Shown here piece after piece: positions 3,138 through 18,188 of a DNA stretch of 18,188 nt. The notes under the pieces were generated by a model. It did not search any database and was not told where the DNA came from. It worked only from the letters and a program-made list of their open reading frames with translations. Each line of letters starts with the position of its first letter. Positions within the stretch are counted from its first letter, which is position 1. The position numbers and the translations under genes were made by a program. This DNA is from a virus (lineage: Duplodnaviria; Heunggongvirae; Uroviricota; Caudoviricetes): IMG/VR virus record IMGVR_UViG_2671181094_000006; one strand, 5' to 3'.

Positions 3138-3563
3138 TTAATGAACTTCCGGCATCACAGGCCATTCAATATCTGGGGCATCATCAGGGTTAACACGACT
3201 GAGCAGAACGGAGTATTTTTCCCAGTGTTCCAGTCGCGTTTTTTCATCCAAGGTAGCCATTCCGTATTTCACAGCACGCGCTAAAGGGACGATAACGTCC
3301 TCAGCCTTTGTACGTTGCCGCTCTTTTTCAGCCCCAGCCAGCCTGGATAACTGTGCTTTGGTCTGTGGAGGTACATCGACCCACGAGGGCAAGCCATCAG
3401 CCCCTACCCCCCTTTGCTTACCTTCTGGTGGAACCCTGGTGAACTCGTGAAAAACGTTATCACTGACTGCTATAAGGTCCGCTGGTAGAGAATTGTTGTC
3501 CCGATAAGCTGGTAATAATTCATCAGGGTAAAAACACGCCGTTGACGCACTAAAATGATACAT
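3138..3563 (-). CDS. Tail fibre assembly chaperone (Tfa family)
   Basis: The start MYHFSASTACFYP is typical of Tfa proteins. The C-terminus HWEKYSVLLSRVNPDDAPDIEWPVMP matches the conserved Tfa tail (W.KYRVLLNRVD...APDIEWP). The start lies 2 nt after the fibre gene stop. Confidence 0.85.
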   Translation of the reverse strand: MYHFSASTACFYPDELLPAYRDNNSLPADLIAVSDNVFHEFTRVPPEGKQRGVGADGLPSWVDVPPQTKAQLSRLAGAEKERQRTKAEDVIVPLARAVKYGMATLDEKTRLEHWEKYSVLLSRVNPDDAPDIEWPVMPEVH

Positions 3564-3565
3564 GA

Positions 3566-4099
3566 CTATTCCCCTATAGCTAACCATCCAAAATTATCTG
3601 CATTACCCGAACTGCCGCTGATCCAGCCATATGCACGGAAACCGGAATTGGAATCATTGGTTACGGACACGTAACGATTTCCATCTGCGTACTTCGTAGC
3701 AACAATAGCAATAGCCCGCTTAGGAAAAGGTATCGGATACTGAACATTACCTGATGGTGAATTAATAGTGGCAGTTCCCATTTGAACAATAATATTTTTC
3801 TTTTCACCTGATGGTGTTCGGGTAGGAATAATACAGTAACCCTGTGAAGTAAGGGCACCTACGATGGGTTCAGATAGAAGGGCGGTGATCCTCAACTCAT
3901 CAATAACTTCGTTTAACTGACCATCATTTTCAGGCTCAAGCTGGCGGCCAGAACCCTCTACCACGCCCACCATCTCACGCTGCCAGGTATTAAAAATATC
4001 GGCAACAAGAATTGTTGGTGATACCCCATTAGCAACATTACCTTGTGTAAATTCCCCATTACTATCAGCAGTATCAGTGACTGAACTTATCTTACGCAT
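3566..4099 (-). CDS. Short tail fibre / receptor-binding tip protein (177 aa)
   Basis: The N-terminal motif FTQGNVANGVSPTILVADIFNTWQREMVGVVEGSG..L.....QL resembles the conserved tail-fibre motif (T...A.WLN..QEEL.NVI...G). The C-terminal GYCIIP...IIVQMG...VQYPIPFP...FGWLAIGE resembles gp53-like tail-fibre C-terminal domains. A Tfa gene follows directly. Confidence 0.8.
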   Translation of the reverse strand: MRKISSVTDTADSNGEFTQGNVANGVSPTILVADIFNTWQREMVGVVEGSGRQLEPENDGQLNEVIDELRITALLSEPIVGALTSQGYCIIPTRTPSGEKKNIIVQMGTATINSPSGNVQYPIPFPKRAIAIVATKYADGNRYVSVTNDSNSGFRAYGWISGSSGNADNFGWLAIGE

Positions 4100-7993: not shown

Positions 7994-8405
7994 ACTGCGA
8001 ATCAAACTGCGAATGCGCAAAAATGAATACGAAATAATATGCGTATTTTACTGTAAATTGCGCACCAGTTTTGCAATTTCACATCAATAAAGCCAGTAAC
8101 CGCGCGGGTTGAGGATGGTTTGCGCATTGGTATCCGTTTCGTTTTGCGCAGATTTTTTGTGAACTGCGCAAATCGCATTGCCGCCGTTAGAATCCGTCAG
8201 ATGGTACGCACGCTGAATGCGCAGTTTTGCCGCGTACCTGACTGCGTACTGCGAACCAGTGGCGCGAACCAGAATATTATGGACAACCTAAATCACGTTC
8301 TGGCTTCCAGCCCGCGACTGGCGCGGTTCTCTCTTCATATCGGCTTTGAGTCTGTCCAGTACAGTCCAGAATTTACAGCCGTTTTAGTGCGAACATTACT
8401 GCGAA
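7994..8405. repeat. Dense array of TGCG(A/C)A motifs filling the perC-like / zinc-ribbon intergenic region
   Basis: Eleven exact copies start at 7996, 8008, 8014, 8059, 8121, 8145, 8165, 8218, 8250, 8388 and 8400. One-mismatch variants start at 8040, 8205, 8243 and 8263. Six copies extend to ACTGCG.A. Paired units 12 bp apart sit at both ends of the array. GCGAACCAG is repeated at 8251 and 8264. Confidence 0.65.
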
Positions 8406-8707
8406 CAGTCGCCCCCGATGGTGGCCTGTCGTTGCTTCTTGCCGCCATTTAACCGGAAGGCGTTACCGTTCGGTTGCGCTATCCCCATGCGGTGTTGCGT
8501 TTCGGTAACAGCTTTATGCAGATCGCCAAAGTCCTCAACCTTCACGGGCGGGCGCTTCACGTTCTCCAGACACGTTTCACGGCGGCGCTTTATCCATTCC
8601 CGATCATCGTCCTCGGTGCATAACAGCATGACTTCCATCCATCGCGCGGCGGCGCGTCGGTACAGCCCTTTTGCTTCCAGATCCTCGGCTTTACTGTCGT
8701 TTACCAT
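8396..8707 (-). CDS. PerC-family-like transcriptional activator (103 aa)
   Basis: From memory, the N-terminus MVNDSKAEDLEAKGLYRRAAARWMEVM resembles PerC/Pch-family prophage proteins. GAGGGGGA SD. The family call was not verified by search. Confidence 0.65.
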   Translation of the reverse strand: MVNDSKAEDLEAKGLYRRAAARWMEVMLLCTEDDDREWIKRRRETCLENVKRPPVKVEDFGDLHKAVTETQHRMGIAQPNGNAFRLNGGKKQRQATIGGDCSQ

Positions 8708-8718
8708 GTGTATCCCCC

Positions 8719-9180
8719 TCAGAATGGATCTTCATCATCAAACGGCGGGCGCTGGTCAAAATCATCAGGGGTGTTATATAGCTCCCATCCCGGCGCGGAT
8801 TGTGTTGCGTGGCCTCTGCTGGCTCCGCTTGCTTTGACTGATTCGGCCCGCTTCCCGCCAGGGCGTACCGTTCTGGCGCTGATTACACTGTCGGCTACTA
8901 CCTGATAACCTTGCTGTATACCGCCATCCTTGCCCGTCCACTGATTGACCTGCATCGCTCCGGCAACACTGACTAAATCGCCTTTAACGTGTCCTGCCAG
9001 TGCGTCGGCCTGTTTGCCGAATGCCACCACGCCCAGCCAGAAAGTAACCTCTCCGCCCTCTGCTGCATGGCATGGCAGTGCCACCGCTAAACGCCCCATT
9101 GCCATGCTTGTACCGTTTGCTGTGGTGCGGGTCTGCGGGTCTGCGACTAAACGCCCGTAGGCTGATATCTGTGCTGTCAT
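8719..9180 (-). CDS. ssb: Single-stranded DNA-binding protein
   Basis: OB-fold-like N-terminus (GRLVADPQTRTTANGTSMAMGRLAV...). Gly/Pro-rich linker. Acidic C-terminal tip FDDEDPF, comparable to DDDIPF of E. coli SSB. Confidence 0.88.
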   Translation of the reverse strand: MTAQISAYGRLVADPQTRTTANGTSMAMGRLAVALPCHAAEGGEVTFWLGVVAFGKQADALAGHVKGDLVSVAGAMQVNQWTGKDGGIQQGYQVVADSVISARTVRPGGKRAESVKASGASRGHATQSAPGWELYNTPDDFDQRPPFDDEDPF

Positions 9181-9284
9181 TTTGCGAATACCTCGAATTA
9201 TTAGTTTTGCTAATGAAGATTACCCGGCTCCGTCTTATTGTGGGACACCTTCGCCAGATTTTTTTGTATATAAACAAAAAAGTT

Positions 9285-9541
9285 GGTGGTTCAGGTGGTT
9301 CAGTGGTTCAGTACCCCTCTAGGCCGCGCCATCTCTGGGTTTTGCTGAACCACCTTTTAAATTTATCTGGTGGTTCAGTCGCCCTTCTTGGTGGTTCACT
9401 GCCAGCCAGTGAAAATAATCCGTTTCTCTCTGGTGGTTCAAAATACCCGTTTGGTGGTTCAGTGGTGGTTCACTTTCTTACAAAAAAACATTATAAATCA
9501 ATAACAATTACTTACTGAACCACTGAACCACCTGAACCACC
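9285..9541. repeat. Iteron-type replication origin of the island
   Basis: There are twelve copies of (T)GGTGGTTCA. A triple tandem at 9285-9311 and its exact 27-bp reverse complement at 9515-9541 bracket five direct copies (9369, 9390, 9432, 9453, 9464) and one inverted copy (9346). An AT-rich tract spans 9476-9514. The field lies between the primase-helicase and ssb genes. Confidence 0.8.
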
Positions 9542-9567
9542 ACAAAAAACCTCGCACGTGAAAAAGA

Positions 9568-12345
9568 TTATTGCTCTGGCTGGCTTTCCTCCCCATCCGG
9601 CAGGAATTGCAAAACGTAAACGTTAATCTGCCTCCCCTGAATGCGCGGGCTTTTCCTCTGAAATTTTTTTCCGTCTGCCGAAGGGGTAAGCATCCCCGAT
9701 TCTTTCAGGACGCGGGCCACCTGCTGCCTGTTAAACCCCTTAGCAATATCCTTATCGAAAGTGTCGGGGAACGTGTAAAACGTTATCGGTGAATCGTCAT
9801 GATTTCCGCGCTGCCTGTATCCAGCCAGATTATGAATCGGCAGGCTGGCGGGGTCGTAAGGCAGCGGCGCGAATCGACTCAGGCCATAGGCATTTAAAAA
9901 TGCCTCCGCCTGCTCGATGATCTGCTGGTGCTCTTTGTTCCCCGTGCCGAACTCTTTTAGCCATGCGTTATAGGCGTGCTGTATCGCATCCCGGCACGTT
10001 TGAGCATCCCAGCCAGTAACCACGCCACCCATCAGTAAAGCGGCCTCCAGAATGGCAAATCTTGCCCCTACACGGTGAACCTGTTCCCCATAGTCGGCAG
10101 GAATTAGACTGCGCCAGCGGGCCTCACACTCACGAACGGCATCAATCGCCTGTTGCTGGTGGTCTGAAAGCCATCTGATCCACTCCCTCCCGGCAGCGCC
10201 ATGATGGTTCTGGTAAGCGTCTTTCAGCGCGTCGGCGTGGTCTCTCCCTGTCTGGTACTCATGAAAGCGCACCGCCTTACTCAGCGGGATATTCAGCAGT
10301 CGCACCAGTTGCCCCGCTTTTGTCTTGCGTCCTGCGGTGGAGATGAACGTTTCTAAATCCATTTCCCCGGTGCTGATTGCCACGGTGCGCCAGCGTTTCA
10401 GATCCCGGTTGCCTCCTTCCTTTGCTCCCTGCAATTTCCCCACGCCGTTAAACAGGGCATAGGCAGACTGAGCAACGCTTATCGGGTCTGCGCCCTGTCC
10501 GACTTCATCCAGTGGCATCAGCCCGTCATTGTGGGCGGCGGCCTCGTTTATCAGCCCCAGCGCCGTTCCGTACCACGTCAGGCGCAAGGCATCAGGGTTG
10601 CCATAAAGACTGCTCGCCACGTTCTGCGTGGTTGTTTTCCCGGCGCTCGATTGCTCGTAAAAATGAATCCCGAAGCCGTCACGCTCCGCCAGCCCGATTA
10701 ACGGTGCTGCAAGTGCGGCGGCAATGCCTGTCATCATCGCGTAGTTACCGTATGCCAGACGCGCAACACTCTTACGCCAGCTCTCTGAGGTTCCCGCCAC
10801 GGTGTACCCGGCAGCGGCAGAACTGCGGCCACTGAATAAAACGGGTTGTGCAGGTGCGCCGATAATCTCCCCGTCCGGCATGATGTATGCCCCGCACTGC
10901 CAGCCAGTAGCGTGAGCAACACGCCACAATTCACGTGAGCCGCTACGCTGTAACCAGTCAGCCAGAATCGCCCGCAAGCTGCTTTTGGTGGTGACGTTAA
11001 CCCCGCCCGCTTTCAGGGTGCGCCAGCCTTCGCGCTCCCCGATATCAGCCAGGGGGATAGCCGCTGTTGTCGGTATGCCTGCGCCAAAGGCCAGCCAGCG
11101 TAATATCAGATACTGATCCTTGTCGTCCCGCCCGGTGCCGATAACGTCCATCGGTGAGGCCAGCCAGCTTTCATTGTTGATAATCTCGCCGCTTTCCTTG
11201 TCCACTTTAGGCGTGATCCAGTAAACGCCATCTTTGCGGCTCTCAATGCGGGGTTTTAGCGGGTCTTTCTCTGGCTGGTCAGTTTTACCGCCCTCAATGG
11301 CCTGTAGTTGTGGTTTCACGCATTCCCCCTGCGGCTGGTACATCGAATCATTAAACGCAGCCGTAGCGACTTCCAGCCCGTGTTGCTGGTGGTAGTCGTT
11401 CCAGTCAGCTTTGCTGTCAGTCGGTGGCAGCGATACCCAGCCAGCCACGGATAAAGCCGCTTTCTCTGCGGCCTCCTTCCCGATGTTGGTGGCTCCGGTT
11501 TCGGAGGCTGCTGTAGGGTGGTCGTTATCTGCGGCGATAATAATTTGCGACTGCGGGTGTTTCCGGCGCATTACTCCGGCAACGTGGATCAGGTTCCCGG
11601 CGTCAATTGCCGCCACTGTGAGCGCGTCAGGCCGCATCTGGTGAACGGACAGGGCGGTAGCCAGCCCCTCGGCAATCACGACGCTTTGAGGCCGTTCCAG
11701 CGCGTTTACGGCGTAATATGCCCCGCGCTTTGCCGATCCCTTAATGAGTCGCTTTTCTCCCTGCGGGGTGATGGTCTGCGCGGCTGTGACTGCGCCGGAT
11801 TCATCCACCAGCTCCAGCAATAACGAACCATCGGGCATAAGCGGGTATTTAAACCCGGTCAGCCCTTTTGATTGCAGGTACTCAGATTCTCCCTGTATGG
11901 ATCTCAGGCGCATTCCGGTATACAGACGGGCAAACGTAGCCCTTCGCTGATCTGCGTCCTCTGCTGCCTGTTTCTGGCGCTCCTGCTCACGCTGCTGGCG
12001 GTCTGCGGCTAACTGCCTCTGTCTCTGGCTGGCAGCGTCTGGTGCTGATTCTGCGGCCCGGTAATCAATACCCAGCACATCAGCGGCAAGCTGTGCCGCC
12101 TCCGTGGTGTCGCAGTTGTTCACCTTCTTAATCAGGTCTAAGCCATCGCCCGCGCCGCACTGGTTGCAGATAAAGCTGCCGCGCCCGTTGTCGTCGAATC
12201 TGAAACGGTCTTTCCCACCACATGCAGGGCAGGGGGCATGGCGGCGCGATGAATCAGGAACGTCGATAGACAATCCGGCCAGCACATAAGGCCATCGCCC
12301 TGCTGCGGCGCTGGTCACTTCGCGGATAAGGTCGATATTACGCAT
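9568..12345 (-). CDS. Primase-helicase replication protein (zinc-binding domain + Toprim + P-loop NTPase), P4-alpha / PICI Pri-Rep type
   Basis: 925 aa. Zinc motif CPACGGKDRFRF...CNQCG. Toprim residues VVIAEGLATALSV and IIIAADNDH. Walker A SSAGKTT and Walker B LMPLDEV. GGGAGGT SD. Confidence 0.95.
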   Translation of the reverse strand: MRNIDLIREVTSAAAGRWPYVLAGLSIDVPDSSRRHAPCPACGGKDRFRFDDNGRGSFICNQCGAGDGLDLIKKVNNCDTTEAAQLAADVLGIDYRAAESAPDAASQRQRQLAADRQQREQERQKQAAEDADQRRATFARLYTGMRLRSIQGESEYLQSKGLTGFKYPLMPDGSLLLELVDESGAVTAAQTITPQGEKRLIKGSAKRGAYYAVNALERPQSVVIAEGLATALSVHQMRPDALTVAAIDAGNLIHVAGVMRRKHPQSQIIIAADNDHPTAASETGATNIGKEAAEKAALSVAGWVSLPPTDSKADWNDYHQQHGLEVATAAFNDSMYQPQGECVKPQLQAIEGGKTDQPEKDPLKPRIESRKDGVYWITPKVDKESGEIINNESWLASPMDVIGTGRDDKDQYLILRWLAFGAGIPTTAAIPLADIGEREGWRTLKAGGVNVTTKSSLRAILADWLQRSGSRELWRVAHATGWQCGAYIMPDGEIIGAPAQPVLFSGRSSAAAGYTVAGTSESWRKSVARLAYGNYAMMTGIAAALAAPLIGLAERDGFGIHFYEQSSAGKTTTQNVASSLYGNPDALRLTWYGTALGLINEAAAHNDGLMPLDEVGQGADPISVAQSAYALFNGVGKLQGAKEGGNRDLKRWRTVAISTGEMDLETFISTAGRKTKAGQLVRLLNIPLSKAVRFHEYQTGRDHADALKDAYQNHHGAAGREWIRWLSDHQQQAIDAVRECEARWRSLIPADYGEQVHRVGARFAILEAALLMGGVVTGWDAQTCRDAIQHAYNAWLKEFGTGNKEHQQIIEQAEAFLNAYGLSRFAPLPYDPASLPIHNLAGYRQRGNHDDSPITFYTFPDTFDKDIAKGFNRQQVARVLKESGMLTPSADGKKFQRKSPRIQGRQINVYVLQFLPDGEESQPEQ

Positions 12346-14866: not shown

Positions 14867-14895
14867 GGCAGCTCTGCAAAGCTGCCTTTGTTTTA
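14867..14895 (+). terminator. Second plus-strand intrinsic terminator, abutting the bro stop codon
   Basis: Perfect stem GGCAGCT (14867-14873) / AGCTGCC (14880-14886) with a 6-nt loop, followed by TTTGTTTTA. Confidence 0.5.
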
Positions 14896-15510
14896 TGCAT
14901 CATCTTCAACGCCCTCCAGCAATCCGGGTTGATACTTTCTCCATAATCCAATTTCTTCCATCTCAAGACGGGCTTTCTCTCCTTTGCACGCCTGTAGGTC
15001 GCTACCGCACTTACTGGCTTTCTTTGTGTACTGATCCTTGCGGCGACTGAAGTCATTTAGGAATGAGAACGGGACGCCGTATGAACCGGTTTTACGTATT
15101 GACGGGATTACTTCGCGGAACACCCAGTTTGTAAATCTGTGGGCAAACGAGCCTGTAGTAGAAGCTTTACGACTACGGGCAATCAGTTTATAAAAGCCTG
15201 ATTCTGCGGCCATATTCCAGCTACGTGCTCCACCACGTTTACCCGAATGACCCTCAGTTAAAGTTAGGGTCATTACCTCGTCGCCATCCAGAGAGGCAAC
15301 GGCACTGGTTGGATTGCTGATTTCCAGCGCCTGGCACACATCAGATACAACGAACCACGGCTCACCGAAAACATTCACGATCCTGACCGTGCGGCCTTCA
15401 AATTTAATTACTGAAATATCATTTTCACTTGCCGTGAAATTAGCCTTTTTGCTGGCTTCAGGGTGAGTCTTGCCGCTGCCAGTTAAGGCAGTAAATTTTT
15501 TCTGAGTCAT
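14893..15510 (-). CDS. Bro-N domain protein (antirepressor-like), 205 aa
   Basis: FEGRTVRIVNVFGEPWFVVSDVCQALEISNPTSAVASLDGDE is the classic Bro-N signature. Confidence 0.85.
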   Translation of the reverse strand: MTQKKFTALTGSGKTHPEASKKANFTASENDISVIKFEGRTVRIVNVFGEPWFVVSDVCQALEISNPTSAVASLDGDEVMTLTLTEGHSGKRGGARSWNMAAESGFYKLIARSRKASTTGSFAHRFTNWVFREVIPSIRKTGSYGVPFSFLNDFSRRKDQYTKKASKCGSDLQACKGEKARLEMEEIGLWRKYQPGLLEGVEDDA

Positions 15511-15648: not shown

Positions 15649-15933
15649 TTAGGCCGATTTACGGCTATATGGGTTATTGACGTTAGGTACAGCAGGGGGA
15701 TTACGAACCCACCAGAGCACATCGGACAAAAGCCAGGCGCAGCTATTGCGGCCAAAGTGGCAGCGCGGAGGAAAGCGGCCCTCTTGCTCCATCTTCCAAC
15801 GACTGGAGCGGGAAAGGCTTGTGATTTCGCCACATTCATCTTCACGAATCCGGCGATCAAACTTGAAGCCGTACTCCTCAAGAAGGTTACGGCGTTGTTC
15901 GGGGTTAGGTGGGGTAAAGATAATATTGTTCAT
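15649..15933 (-). CDS. alpA: AlpA-family transcriptional regulator / excisionase-like HTH protein
   Basis: I chose the ATG at 15933, with GGAGG 5 nt upstream. RRIREDECGEITSLSRSSRWKMEQEGRFPPRCHFGRNSCAWLLSDVLWWV fits the AlpA pattern (LSRST.Y....G.FP.P...G.R...W..S.V..W.). Confidence 0.85.
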   Translation of the reverse strand: MNNIIFTPPNPEQRRNLLEEYGFKFDRRIREDECGEITSLSRSSRWKMEQEGRFPPRCHFGRNSCAWLLSDVLWWVRNPPAVPNVNNPYSRKSA

Positions 15934-16029
15934 ACTGCCTCCACTGTTTCTAGGTTTGTGGAGGTTATTGTTATCAATCAAAAAGAACTTGTCTGAAATA
16001 TTCCGGAAAATTAACGGAATTTCCGCAGA

Positions 16030-16961: not shown

Positions 16962-18188
16962 TTAATCTCTATTCGCTACAGGTAACAGAACCACATTTTT
17001 ATGATTACCCGCAAGAAGTTCTAAACGTTCATGCCATTTGTTCAGCGCATCCAGCTTCTCCGGCAAGTACAGGCTACGGTTATATATAGCCATGACGCCC
17101 GGTAGAGCATGACCCAGCAGCAACTCTACAATATGCGGTGCTATGCCCATATTGTTTAACCCCGTGGAGAACGTGCGCCGCAGATCGTGAAGTGTCCACG
17201 GCTCGTTATGATGGAAATCTTTAAAAAGCCGTCGCCCTTTCAAAGATACAGCTTGCCGGGTGCGCTCTTCTCCCAGCAGCAGGCCTGTTTTACCCGTCTC
17301 GCGTTTTAACTCTTCCAGCCACGGGCGTATAGCTTCAGGGATTGATCTCACGATTTTCTCGCGGGTTTTGCTGTGCTCTTTCGGGACTGTCCAAATCCAC
17401 GAGGTAAAATCCCACTCCGACCATCGAGAGAGGCGAACTTCCATCGTTCGAGCGCCAAACAGCACCAGCATTTTGAGAAGACGTGAATAATACGGCTGCT
17501 GATCATCGCTGTCTGTGCAGCGCCATACATCGGCCAGCTCGCTATCTGACAATACGCGGTCACGTTGACCGGATGGCTGGCCTACATCCTGAATGGTGAG
17601 AAAGGCTAGAGCATCACTGGCGGCATAGCGGCGAACCTTGCAGAAGCGTAACGCCTGTTTAGAAATCTGGAACATGCGGCCGGCGGTCATGGGTTTGGTC
17701 AGATTTATTTCATCAAAACAGGCCACCCAATGACGGGTTTCACATCTGGTGAGGGGATAACGACCAAGGCGCGGGTAAATATGCTTGCGTAGCTGTGCCC
17801 TTACCAGCTCCTCATCGCTGCGCTTTCTCCTGGCGTAGTTCACCAGCCAGTATTCGAGAGCATCCTGTACTGTCACAGGTTTAAGCGTTTCTTCGGTGCT
17901 CAGTTCAAGCTCTGTTTTTGGATCAAGACCACCAGCCAGCCACTGGCGACACTTTTCCCGCTTTTCTCTCGCCGCTTTTAGCGACAAATCCGGGTAACGG
18001 CCAAGCGTTAAACGTTCGAGTTTGCTACCCCTTCCGCCCAATCGGTAAGCGAACACCCAGCTAACGTTACCTTGCTTCGAAACCTTAATGCTCAGTCCTT
18101 CACCATCGGCAATCATGATCGGTGCTTCACGCTCAGAACCCTGCAGCGCTTTTAGCTTTTTGTCGCTCAGTTTGTTTGTACCAGCCAT
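16962..18188 (-). CDS. P4-type tyrosine integrase (full length; the start codon is the last three bases of the window)
   Basis: N-terminal arm-type domain (LSDKKLKAL...GEGLSIKVSKQGNVSWVFAYRLGG...LGRYPDLSLKAAREK). Catalytic residues ARTMEVRLSRW, HDLRRT, LLGH, and Y in AIYNRS. Confidence 0.95.
   Translation of the reverse strand: MAGTNKLSDKKLKALQGSEREAPIMIADGEGLSIKVSKQGNVSWVFAYRLGGRGSKLERLTLGRYPDLSLKAAREKREKCRQWLAGGLDPKTELELSTEETLKPVTVQDALEYWLVNYARRKRSDEELVRAQLRKHIYPRLGRYPLTRCETRHWVACFDEINLTKPMTAGRMFQISKQALRFCKVRRYAASDALAFLTIQDVGQPSGQRDRVLSDSELADVWRCTDSDDQQPYYSRLLKMLVLFGARTMEVRLSRWSEWDFTSWIWTVPKEHSKTREKIVRSIPEAIRPWLEELKRETGKTGLLLGEERTRQAVSLKGRRLFKDFHHNEPWTLHDLRRTFSTGLNNMGIAPHIVELLLGHALPGVMAIYNRSLYLPEKLDALNKWHERLELLAGNHKNVVLLPVANRD

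Follow-up and report, generated by a model that had tools for sequence, protein, structure and literature searches.

The 18,188-nt sequence analysed here (IMG/VR record IMGVR_UViG_2671181094_000006, Caudoviricetes; hereafter the window) carries at positions 9284-9542 a field of short repeats, or iterons, that very probably serves a Gram-negative phage-inducible chromosomal island (PICI) as its replication origin. The adjacent gene, pri-rep, encodes the 925-aa primase-helicase Pri-Rep that would act on it. A first-pass annotation of the window had already proposed that the field is the cognate origin of this primase-helicase. We found four features that argue for this proposal: the position of the field, its AT-rich tract, a layout kept in about 45 relatives, and a strict co-variation between the iteron sequence and a predicted winged-helix domain of the protein.

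The octamer GTGGTTCA occurs in 12 exact copies in the window, eight on the plus strand and four on the minus strand, and all of them lie within the 255 nt from 9286 to 9540. Chance expectation is 0.48 copies per window, as estimated from 200 dinucleotide-preserving shuffles; the highest count in a shuffled sequence was three, and none reached 12. The iteron unit is the 9-nt sequence GGTGGTTCA, present in both orientations. The field starts 26 nt past the stop codon of pri-rep (9568-9570) and ends before the start of ssb, which is the placement given in the first-pass annotation. Its two ends form an inverted repeat, each arm consisting of three abutting iterons. The arms had been described as 27 bp long (9285-9311 and 9515-9541); the repeat in fact extends to 30 nt (9284-9313 and 9513-9542), with 100% complementarity and 199 nt between the arms. 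The five direct copies and the single inverted copy reported between them are likewise present. The direct copies start at 9368, 9389, 9431, 9452, and 9463, and their spacings of 21, 42, 21, and 11 nt are near whole helical turns. The AT-rich tract noted at 9476-9514, abutting the right arm, has a GC content of 27-33%, and only one other 39-mer in the window is less stable (99.95th percentile of nearest-neighbour free energy). Low GC content and low stability make it a probable DNA-unwinding element.

Origins of the Staphylococcus aureus pathogenicity islands (SaPIs) carry 6-12 iterons immediately 3' of rep, with at least two of them, in opposite directions, on each side of an AT-rich region; the C-terminal winged helix of Rep reads these iterons, and two hexamers have been proposed to load (PMC9371898). 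The window shows the same arrangement: 12 iteron cores, a location immediately 3' of the initiator gene, an AT-rich tract with three minus-strand copies on one side and three plus-strand copies on the other, and a Rep-type helicase with a predicted C-terminal winged helix. The symmetric design had been called tidier than usual in the first-pass annotation. Opposed iterons flanking an AT-rich tract 3' of rep are, however, a published hallmark of both SaPI and Gram-negative PICI origins (PMC9371898, PMC6092414).

Pri-Rep has Pfam matches to Zn_Ribbon_Prim, Toprim_3, and DUF927. Among PDB sequences, SaPIbov1 Rep (8tch) matched over residues 423-819 (E 5.8e-9). Foldseek searches with a full-length AlphaFold2 model retrieved Cch of SCCmec (5dgk, E 4e-14) and SaPIbov1 Rep (8tch, E 7e-12) for the helicase part, and T7 gp4 and DnaG primases for the N-terminal part. 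The helicase is thus homologous to SaPIbov1 Rep, with 10-15% identity in structural alignments. A profile of the C-terminal domain gave nothing significant against PDB sequences, so a fold search was needed for this domain. In a separate model of residues 781-925 (pLDDT, the per-residue model confidence, of 71-84 in the core), the predicted winged helix consists of two strands and two helices, followed by a beta-hairpin wing.

An ORF (open reading frame) of 148 aa on the plus strand (9072-9518), opposite to pri-rep, crosses the origin in the window, and gene callers put ORFs of 92-101 aa over the origin in relatives L076 (8829-9134), L077 (4814-5119), and L079 (4817-5095). Since iterons make up most of the ORF across the origin, and since it overlaps ssb in antisense, it is probably spurious.

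Layouts of the probable origin among relatives

A first protein search yielded 1,966 relatives at E <= 1e-20 among 8,000 candidates examined. Some single variants occurred on Klebsiella contigs by the hundred; for others, the annotated sources are Enterobacter, Citrobacter, Salmonella, and Escherichia coli. We fetched 72 loci encoding the primase from Enterobacterales genomes and read the DNA following each pri-rep stop codon. When the iteron strings were searched for in the literature, all matches were to primers or sequences without relation to these islands.

About 25 loci keep the 12-copy layout of the window, in the same order and with offsets that agree within a few nucleotides. Counted from the stop codon, this scaffold begins with three iterons in tandem at about +26; an AT-rich gap follows, then five opposite-strand iterons at about +97, +108, +129, +172, and +193, the single reversed iteron in forward orientation at about +215, and three opposite-strand iterons at about +259 to +277. 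The first iteron lies about 23-31 nt past the stop codon in most relatives scored, with a few outliers. About 20 further loci hold the primase-proximal unit alone, that is three tandem iterons, the AT-rich tract, and three opposed iterons, followed by unrelated DNA. The copy total in relatives is 6 or 12. A third layout, also of 12 copies, is composed of two tandem iterons, the AT-rich tract, four opposite iterons, one opposite, two forward, and three opposite. The proximal arm is present in every iteron-bearing relative, with two to seven copies. The highest number is found in L064, where seven tandem iterons extend from about 29 to 90 nt after the pri-rep stop codon and the distal half is absent. 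The trio at about +97, +108, and +129 keeps equal offsets in 6-copy and 12-copy relatives, and the two direct iterons matching 9368-9398 occur only in 12-copy layouts. As about 20 loci keep the proximal unit alone, the conserved core is the proximal arm, the AT-rich tract, and the trio at 9431-9472, and not the outer pair of arms.

At least ten different iteron sequences were observed on this one scaffold. The commonest class is GTTGGTTCA; others are TGTTGTCTC, GTCGGTTCA, TCGGTTCA, GTCGGGTA, ACGGGTTA, GTGGGTTA, ACTTATCCCA, and CGGTCACA. The iteron of the window, GGTGGTTCA, differs from GTTGGTTCA by one base, changed in all 12 copies, and this class was found at none of the 72 loci. Class ACTTATCCCA, located about 20-300 nt after the pri-rep stop codon in L061, L066, L070, and L071, resembles the E. 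coli DnaA box TTATCCACA.

Several pieces of the probable origin other than iterons are also conserved. In every iteron class, the relatives have a gap of 43-57 nt corresponding to the AT-rich tract, with an AT content of 73-84%, and within it a TGATTTATAA core (9494-9503 in the window) is conserved across classes. So is a central CTGGCTGGCAG block following the two direct iterons (9399-9411). Just outside the distal arm, a palindrome of the form TTTT..TATATA..AAAA is invariant in six iteron classes (TTTTTTGTATATAAACAAAAAA in the window, 9259-9282). These three pieces may be host-factor or promoter sites, and the palindrome may correspond to a promoter region or to a second easily melted site. 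A consensus scan of 9100-9700 detected no sigma-70-like promoter on either strand and one terminator-like match, located inside an iteron; as nothing rose above shuffled sequences, we rejected the reading of the field as a terminator or promoter.

The mirror symmetry of the arms had been interpreted in the first-pass annotation as two helicase-loading assemblies facing each other across the unwinding element. According to this view, the two 30-nt arms form a functional pair, each bearing one assembly, with everything else in between, and the symmetry itself is selected. The perfection of the 30-nt inverted repeat is in its favour, as is the recurrence of long mirror stretches in several lineages. 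We scored arm mirroring in 18 loci with 12 copies: in nine of them (L001, L003, L006-8, L010, L023, L024, and L047) the arms mirror each other exactly over 26-34 nt. Degenerate positions are duplicated in both arms, for example TCTCTGTTGTCTT in L003 as compared with TCTCAGTTGTCTT in L007, which suggests concerted evolution of the two arms. However, the other nine loci share just 14-18 nt exactly between their arms, and the four nearest relatives, from Citrobacter and Enterobacter (L076, L077, L079, and L080), with an otherwise identical origin, carry one extra G in the proximal arm and hence a 1-nt indel between the arms. Perfect mirroring is therefore a local detail rather than a conserved requirement. 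Moreover, the AT-rich tract is off-centre: it abuts the proximal arm, lies about 160 nt from the distal one, and faces on its other side the copies at 9431-9472. The distal arm is absent from the approximately 20 relatives reduced to the proximal unit, and a shortened version occurs in L014. Emphasis on the two arms as loading sites is thus not supported, and we consider the model of a functional arm pair unlikely.

The distal half (9284-9398; two direct iterons, one inverted iteron, and the 30-nt arm) lies outside the conserved core. It is probably an accessory set of iterons, which may add affinity or serve in copy control. Because this half is evolutionarily optional and abuts the invariant AT-rich palindrome upstream of ssb, it may serve copy control or the regulation of ssb-perC. 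Stated more fully, this half would be regulatory and no part of the initiation site: its iterons would titrate or handcuff Pri-Rep and so limit copy number, like the additional iterons found at P1 incA or in RK2, or they would let Pri-Rep control transcription into ssb-perC from the palindrome. It is optional among relatives while the proximal unit is constant, and across iteron classes the distal arm abuts the palindrome about 100 nt upstream of ssb, as this regulatory role would have it. The absence of a sigma-70-like site in the scanned region speaks against it, as does the finding that relatives lacking the distal half have ssb or other genes directly after the core, so that read-through from pri-rep may suffice. 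A regulatory distal half is possible, although on the doubtful side, and it is compatible with the assignment of the field as an origin.

We also considered that the 259-nt unit might be a miniature inverted-repeat transposable element, or that it might act in the pri-rep-ssb transcript as a structured RNA or as an RNase III site. Perfect 30-nt terminal inverted repeats 199 nt apart would suit a transposable element, and the transcript strand is predicted to fold with the arms paired (minimum free energy -109 kcal/mol, z -7.8). Such a strong predicted fold is trivial, since the inverted repeat itself gives it. The arms are built of the 9-nt unit that recurs six more times inside, and all copies in the window lie at one site. 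E. coli genomes bearing the segment have a median of one copy, which is chromosomal; no target-site duplication abuts the unit, and in one E. coli match that we inspected (H1) the segment is flanked by ssb and the primase gene. Complementarity between the arms is not a conserved feature, and many relatives lack the distal arm. A scan against Rfam placed no family near its gathering score, the best match being a plant miRNA family (E 0.031). We regard both the transposable element and the RNA structure as extremely improbable.

Iteron class and the C-terminal domain of Pri-Rep

Up to about residue 800, identity between the window protein and its best relatives exceeds 90%. Over residues 820-925, identity falls to 50-70% with every other iteron class. 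Among pairs of proteins whose middle domains are at least 85% identical, the mean identity of the C-terminal domain is 0.83 where the two share an iteron class and 0.64 where they do not. We aligned the proteins over all 925 residues and looked for columns that fully separate the classes. All 13 columns separating the GGTGGTTCA proteins (n = 5) from the GTTGGTTCA proteins (n = 30) fall in residues 838-925. Likewise, the seven columns that separate TGTTGTCTC (n = 6) from GTTGGTTCA proteins all fall in residues 845-916, five of them at 897-902. Diagnostic residues of the window class include S889, D891, K893, and K894. On the model, the class-diagnostic residues lie in the predicted wing (889-902) and where the second of the two predicted helices begins (873-876). 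The stretch following the GML motif is class specific: PPxSGRGYQRKSPRI for GTTGGTTCA, ...GRGYQGRV-RE for TGTTGTCTC, and PSADGKKFQRKSPRI for the window. In a forward test, we picked four database proteins solely by the wing motif of the window, DGKKFQ; their contigs yielded five loci, and 5/5 carried 12 copies of GGTGGTTCA.

Identity was also profiled at the DNA level. Relative to the E. coli locus L003, identity is 93-99% in the helicase, 58-65% in the C-terminal domain and most of the origin, and 82-97% in the rest of the origin, ssb, and perC. The comparison with L076 gives 81-90% upstream of nt 2250 and 100% from there through ssb. As far as sequence comparison goes, the C-terminal domain and the origin are shown to be inherited together as a cassette. 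The C-terminal residues predict the iteron class without exception, which lends comparative support to the specificity of each Pri-Rep for its own iterons.

This co-variation also bears on another interpretation, in which the field is a mere operator array where a DNA-binding protein controls transcription, for instance in autoregulation at the pri-rep/ssb junction, and a different site, such as 7994-8405, is the origin. Short repeated sites in both orientations are found in operator regions too, and the window does contain a second repeat field, at 7996-8405, between the perC stop codon and the start of a 203-aa ORF. That field consists of 11-12 TGCG(C/A)A hexamers, six of which are the palindrome TGCGCA, together with longer ACTGCGAA units, and it contains no copy of the GTGGTTCA iteron. 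L003 and L077 have the same field after perC, whereas none of the other relatives checked has it, not even the perC-bearing L078; it travels with perC, not with pri-rep, and may comprise regulatory sites for the downstream operon. The field at 9284-9542 conforms to the position, copy number, and AT-tract rules of tested PICI and SaPI origins, and its iteron sequence co-varies with the C-terminal domain of the helicase itself. A simple operator array is accordingly very unlikely.

A broader proposal goes beyond the assignment of the origin. The Pri-Rep family could constitute a naturally occurring set of initiator/origin pairs, mutually orthogonal and sharing a fixed scaffold, with specificity residing in a few residues of the recognition helix and wing of the winged helix, the distal half acting as a module for copy control or for ssb-perC, and the arms being kept identical by gene conversion. 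We hold this as tentative, plausible but short of probable. If it is true, swapping wings should switch specificity, the C-terminal domain together with the origin would move as a recombination cassette, and co-resident islands would avoid competing for each other's initiator.

Island context and feature coordinates

Gram-negative PICIs have the layout int, alpA, pri-rep, ori, and PerC alleles are typical cargo (PMC6092414). The gene content of the window agrees with this layout (table 1). The integrase gene stands at one end, followed by an AlpA-domain ORF, and then by pri-rep and the origin, with transcription in one direction. The window does not hold both ends of the island. An E. coli relative inserted between dinD and yicC has the gene order of the window.

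Table 1. Features of the probable origin region and of the island in the window
Feature	Position	Strand	Remarks
perC	8396..8707	-	after ssb
ssb	8719..9180	-	Pfam SSB, single-stranded DNA-binding protein; directly downstream of the origin
AT-rich palindrome TTTTTTGTATATAAACAAAAAA	9259..9282	.	inverted repeat just outside the distal arm, upstream of ssb
Distal arm	9284..9313	+	three abutting iterons; exact reverse complement of the proximal arm
Single inverted internal iteron	9345..9354	-	core 9346-9353
Two more direct iterons	9368..9398	+	9368-9377 and 9389-9398; 21 nt apart, 42 nt from the trio
Opposed trio facing the proximal arm across the AT-rich tract	9431..9472	+	iterons 9463-9472, 9452-9461, 9431-9440; spacings 11 and 21 nt
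AT-rich tract, probable DNA-unwinding element	9476..9512 (37 nt)	.	low GC content and low stability
Primase-proximal arm	9513..9542	-	iteron cores 9516-9523, 9524-9531, 9533-9540
pri-rep	9568..12345	-	925 aa; Zn-ribbon and TOPRIM primase, DUF927 (SaPI Rep/Cch-type) helicase, C-terminal DNA-binding domain
Predicted winged-helix origin-binding domain (aa 838-925)	9571..9834	-	recognition helix about aa 873-883, wing about aa 886-914
Bro-N protein gene	14893..15510	-	domain match
AlpA-domain ORF	15649..15981	-	domain match
Tyrosine integrase gene	16962..18188	-	runs off the window end

Three circular records of 17-22 kb from Klebsiella and Raoultella, deposited as non-mobilizable plasmids, match the pri-rep region: CP031371.2 (L001), NZ_CP146545.1 (L002), and CP031370.2. 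L001 and L002 carry the whole island set of int, pri-rep, ssb, perC, and PRiA4_ORF3, with Bro-N in L001 only, and several of their genes appear frameshifted. As the whole gene set is present, these two records look like excised PICIs assembled as circles. The circular 17-22 kb records show the existence of excised circles, not replication.

Other genes of the window encode a protein with a tail-fibre C-terminal domain (3566-4099) and a tail-fibre assembly protein (3138-3587), and the product of an ORF at 2202-2789 has a weak match to the N-terminal part of a terminase small subunit (TerS-like). Tail-fibre genes on a PICI could have a bearing on helper or host range. Together with the TerS-like ORF they are only hints, from gene content, of induction by a helper phage and packaging of the island. 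The assembly labelled Chryseobacterium sp. 18061 contains two Enterobacterales-type pri-rep loci (L004, CACSKA010000004.1; L072, CACSKA010000009.1), whose products are 73-84% identical to the window protein; contamination or a mislabelled assembly is the probable cause.

Proposed mechanism and known systems

Taken as an origin, the field suggests the following scheme. Pri-Rep would be made after induction of the island, and its C-terminal winged helix would read the 9-nt GGTGGTTCA. Protomers bound to the proximal arm (9513-9542) and to the opposed trio (9431-9472) would bracket the 37-nt AT-rich tract (9476-9512), where DUF927 helicase rings would self-load, probably one on each side, and melt the tract. 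The fused N-terminal Zn-ribbon/TOPRIM primase would then lay the first primers, and the island SSB, encoded next door, would coat the single strands. Iteron binding, tract melting, double loading, and the role of the distal half are steps that we infer.

Several points weigh against the assignment and this scheme. The iteron sets that would load the helicase are deduced only from the conservation of parts. The co-variation is partly confounded by shared ancestry, as a single switch, or a small number of them, may account for each iteron class; on the other hand, mosaic identity patterns indicate recombination around the cassette. The structure models are of only moderate confidence, with a mean pLDDT of 68.5 for the full-length model. 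Finally, the initiator of EcCICFT073, the tested island, is not detectably homologous to the Pri-Rep of the window (BLASTP E 1.3).

The assignment gives an origin and a likely origin-binding domain to a very common family of islands. It should help annotation, given that spurious ORFs are called across the origin and excised islands are deposited as plasmids, and it supports predictions of which co-resident islands do or do not share an initiator. As specificity seems, from the comparisons, to be determined by a short stretch of the wing, the family may also offer compact orthogonal replicons.

Among known origins, those of iteron plasmids (pPS10, F, R6K, RK2, and P1) likewise place iterons by an AT-rich unwinding element, have an initiator matched to the iteron, and use extra iterons for copy control. 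Their iterons are direct repeats of 17-22 nt in one orientation, and their Rep proteins lack helicase and primase and depend on DnaA, DnaB, and DnaC. The field does not belong with these origins of the Rep/pi/TrfA type: its unit is 9 nt long and occurs in both orientations, and its initiator has TOPRIM and helicase domains. Core origins of SV40 and the polyomaviruses (large T antigen) and of papillomaviruses (E1) have inverted short elements beside an AT-rich tract, on which the initiator helicase assembles as two rings. This is a likeness of working only and not of membership, since hosts and proteins are unrelated; those origins have four pentanucleotides and no fused primase, whereas the window has 12 nonamers.

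The alpha protein of phage P4 joins primase, helicase, and a C-terminal origin-binding domain in one polypeptide and acts on short iterons of the satellite. Pri-Rep is also a single primase-helicase polypeptide with a predicted C-terminal origin-binding domain. The P4 iteron is TGTTCACC, however, and the alpha primase is not known to be of the TOPRIM/DUF927 type. P4 further needs a second cis site, crr, with the same iterons several kilobases from ori. We rejected a counterpart of crr in the window: all iterons lie in the one field, none being found outside it within the 18 kb, and the array at 7996-8405 is a different, perC-linked motif.

The closest parallels are with the islands themselves. 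Compared with the origins of SaPIbov1, SaPI1, and SaPI5, the window has an iteron of 9 nt instead of 5-6 nt, an off-centre AT-rich tract with three copies on one side and nine on the other, a primase part of the Zn-ribbon/TOPRIM (DnaG/T7 gp4) type, and a Gram-negative host. E. coli PICIs share the SaPI-type origin plan, and the pri-rep-ori region of EcCICFT073, with an initiator allele different from that of the window, drives plasmid replication (Fillol-Salom et al. 2018, PMC6092414). EcCICFT073 has the same local order of DUF4222, pri-rep, ori, ssb, and perC (L083 17931-28655; NC_004431.1 1377930-1388654). Its origin also resembles that of the window in outline, with tandem iterons just past the stop codon, an AT-rich tract, copies in both orientations, and a terminal inverted pair; this pair and the first one are 190 nt apart and show 89% complementarity. 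It differs in a TCTACC-based iteron, in having two copies per end arm and not three, and in its initiator, which is annotated as a "DNA primase family protein", is 584 aa long, and has no detectable similarity to the 925-aa protein. We rejected a 10-nt sequence common to both origins, GCCGCGCCAT, as a sign of shared origin ancestry; it stands in opposite orientation to the primase gene and was judged insignificant by a rough estimate for regions of about 300 nt. As EcCICFT073 matches the window in gene order and outline and not in its initiator, the origin plan and its neighbours seem to be common to islands with different initiators. Since SaPI and E. coli PICI origins have already been described on the same plan, the origin of the window is an ordinary example of it and introduces no new principle.

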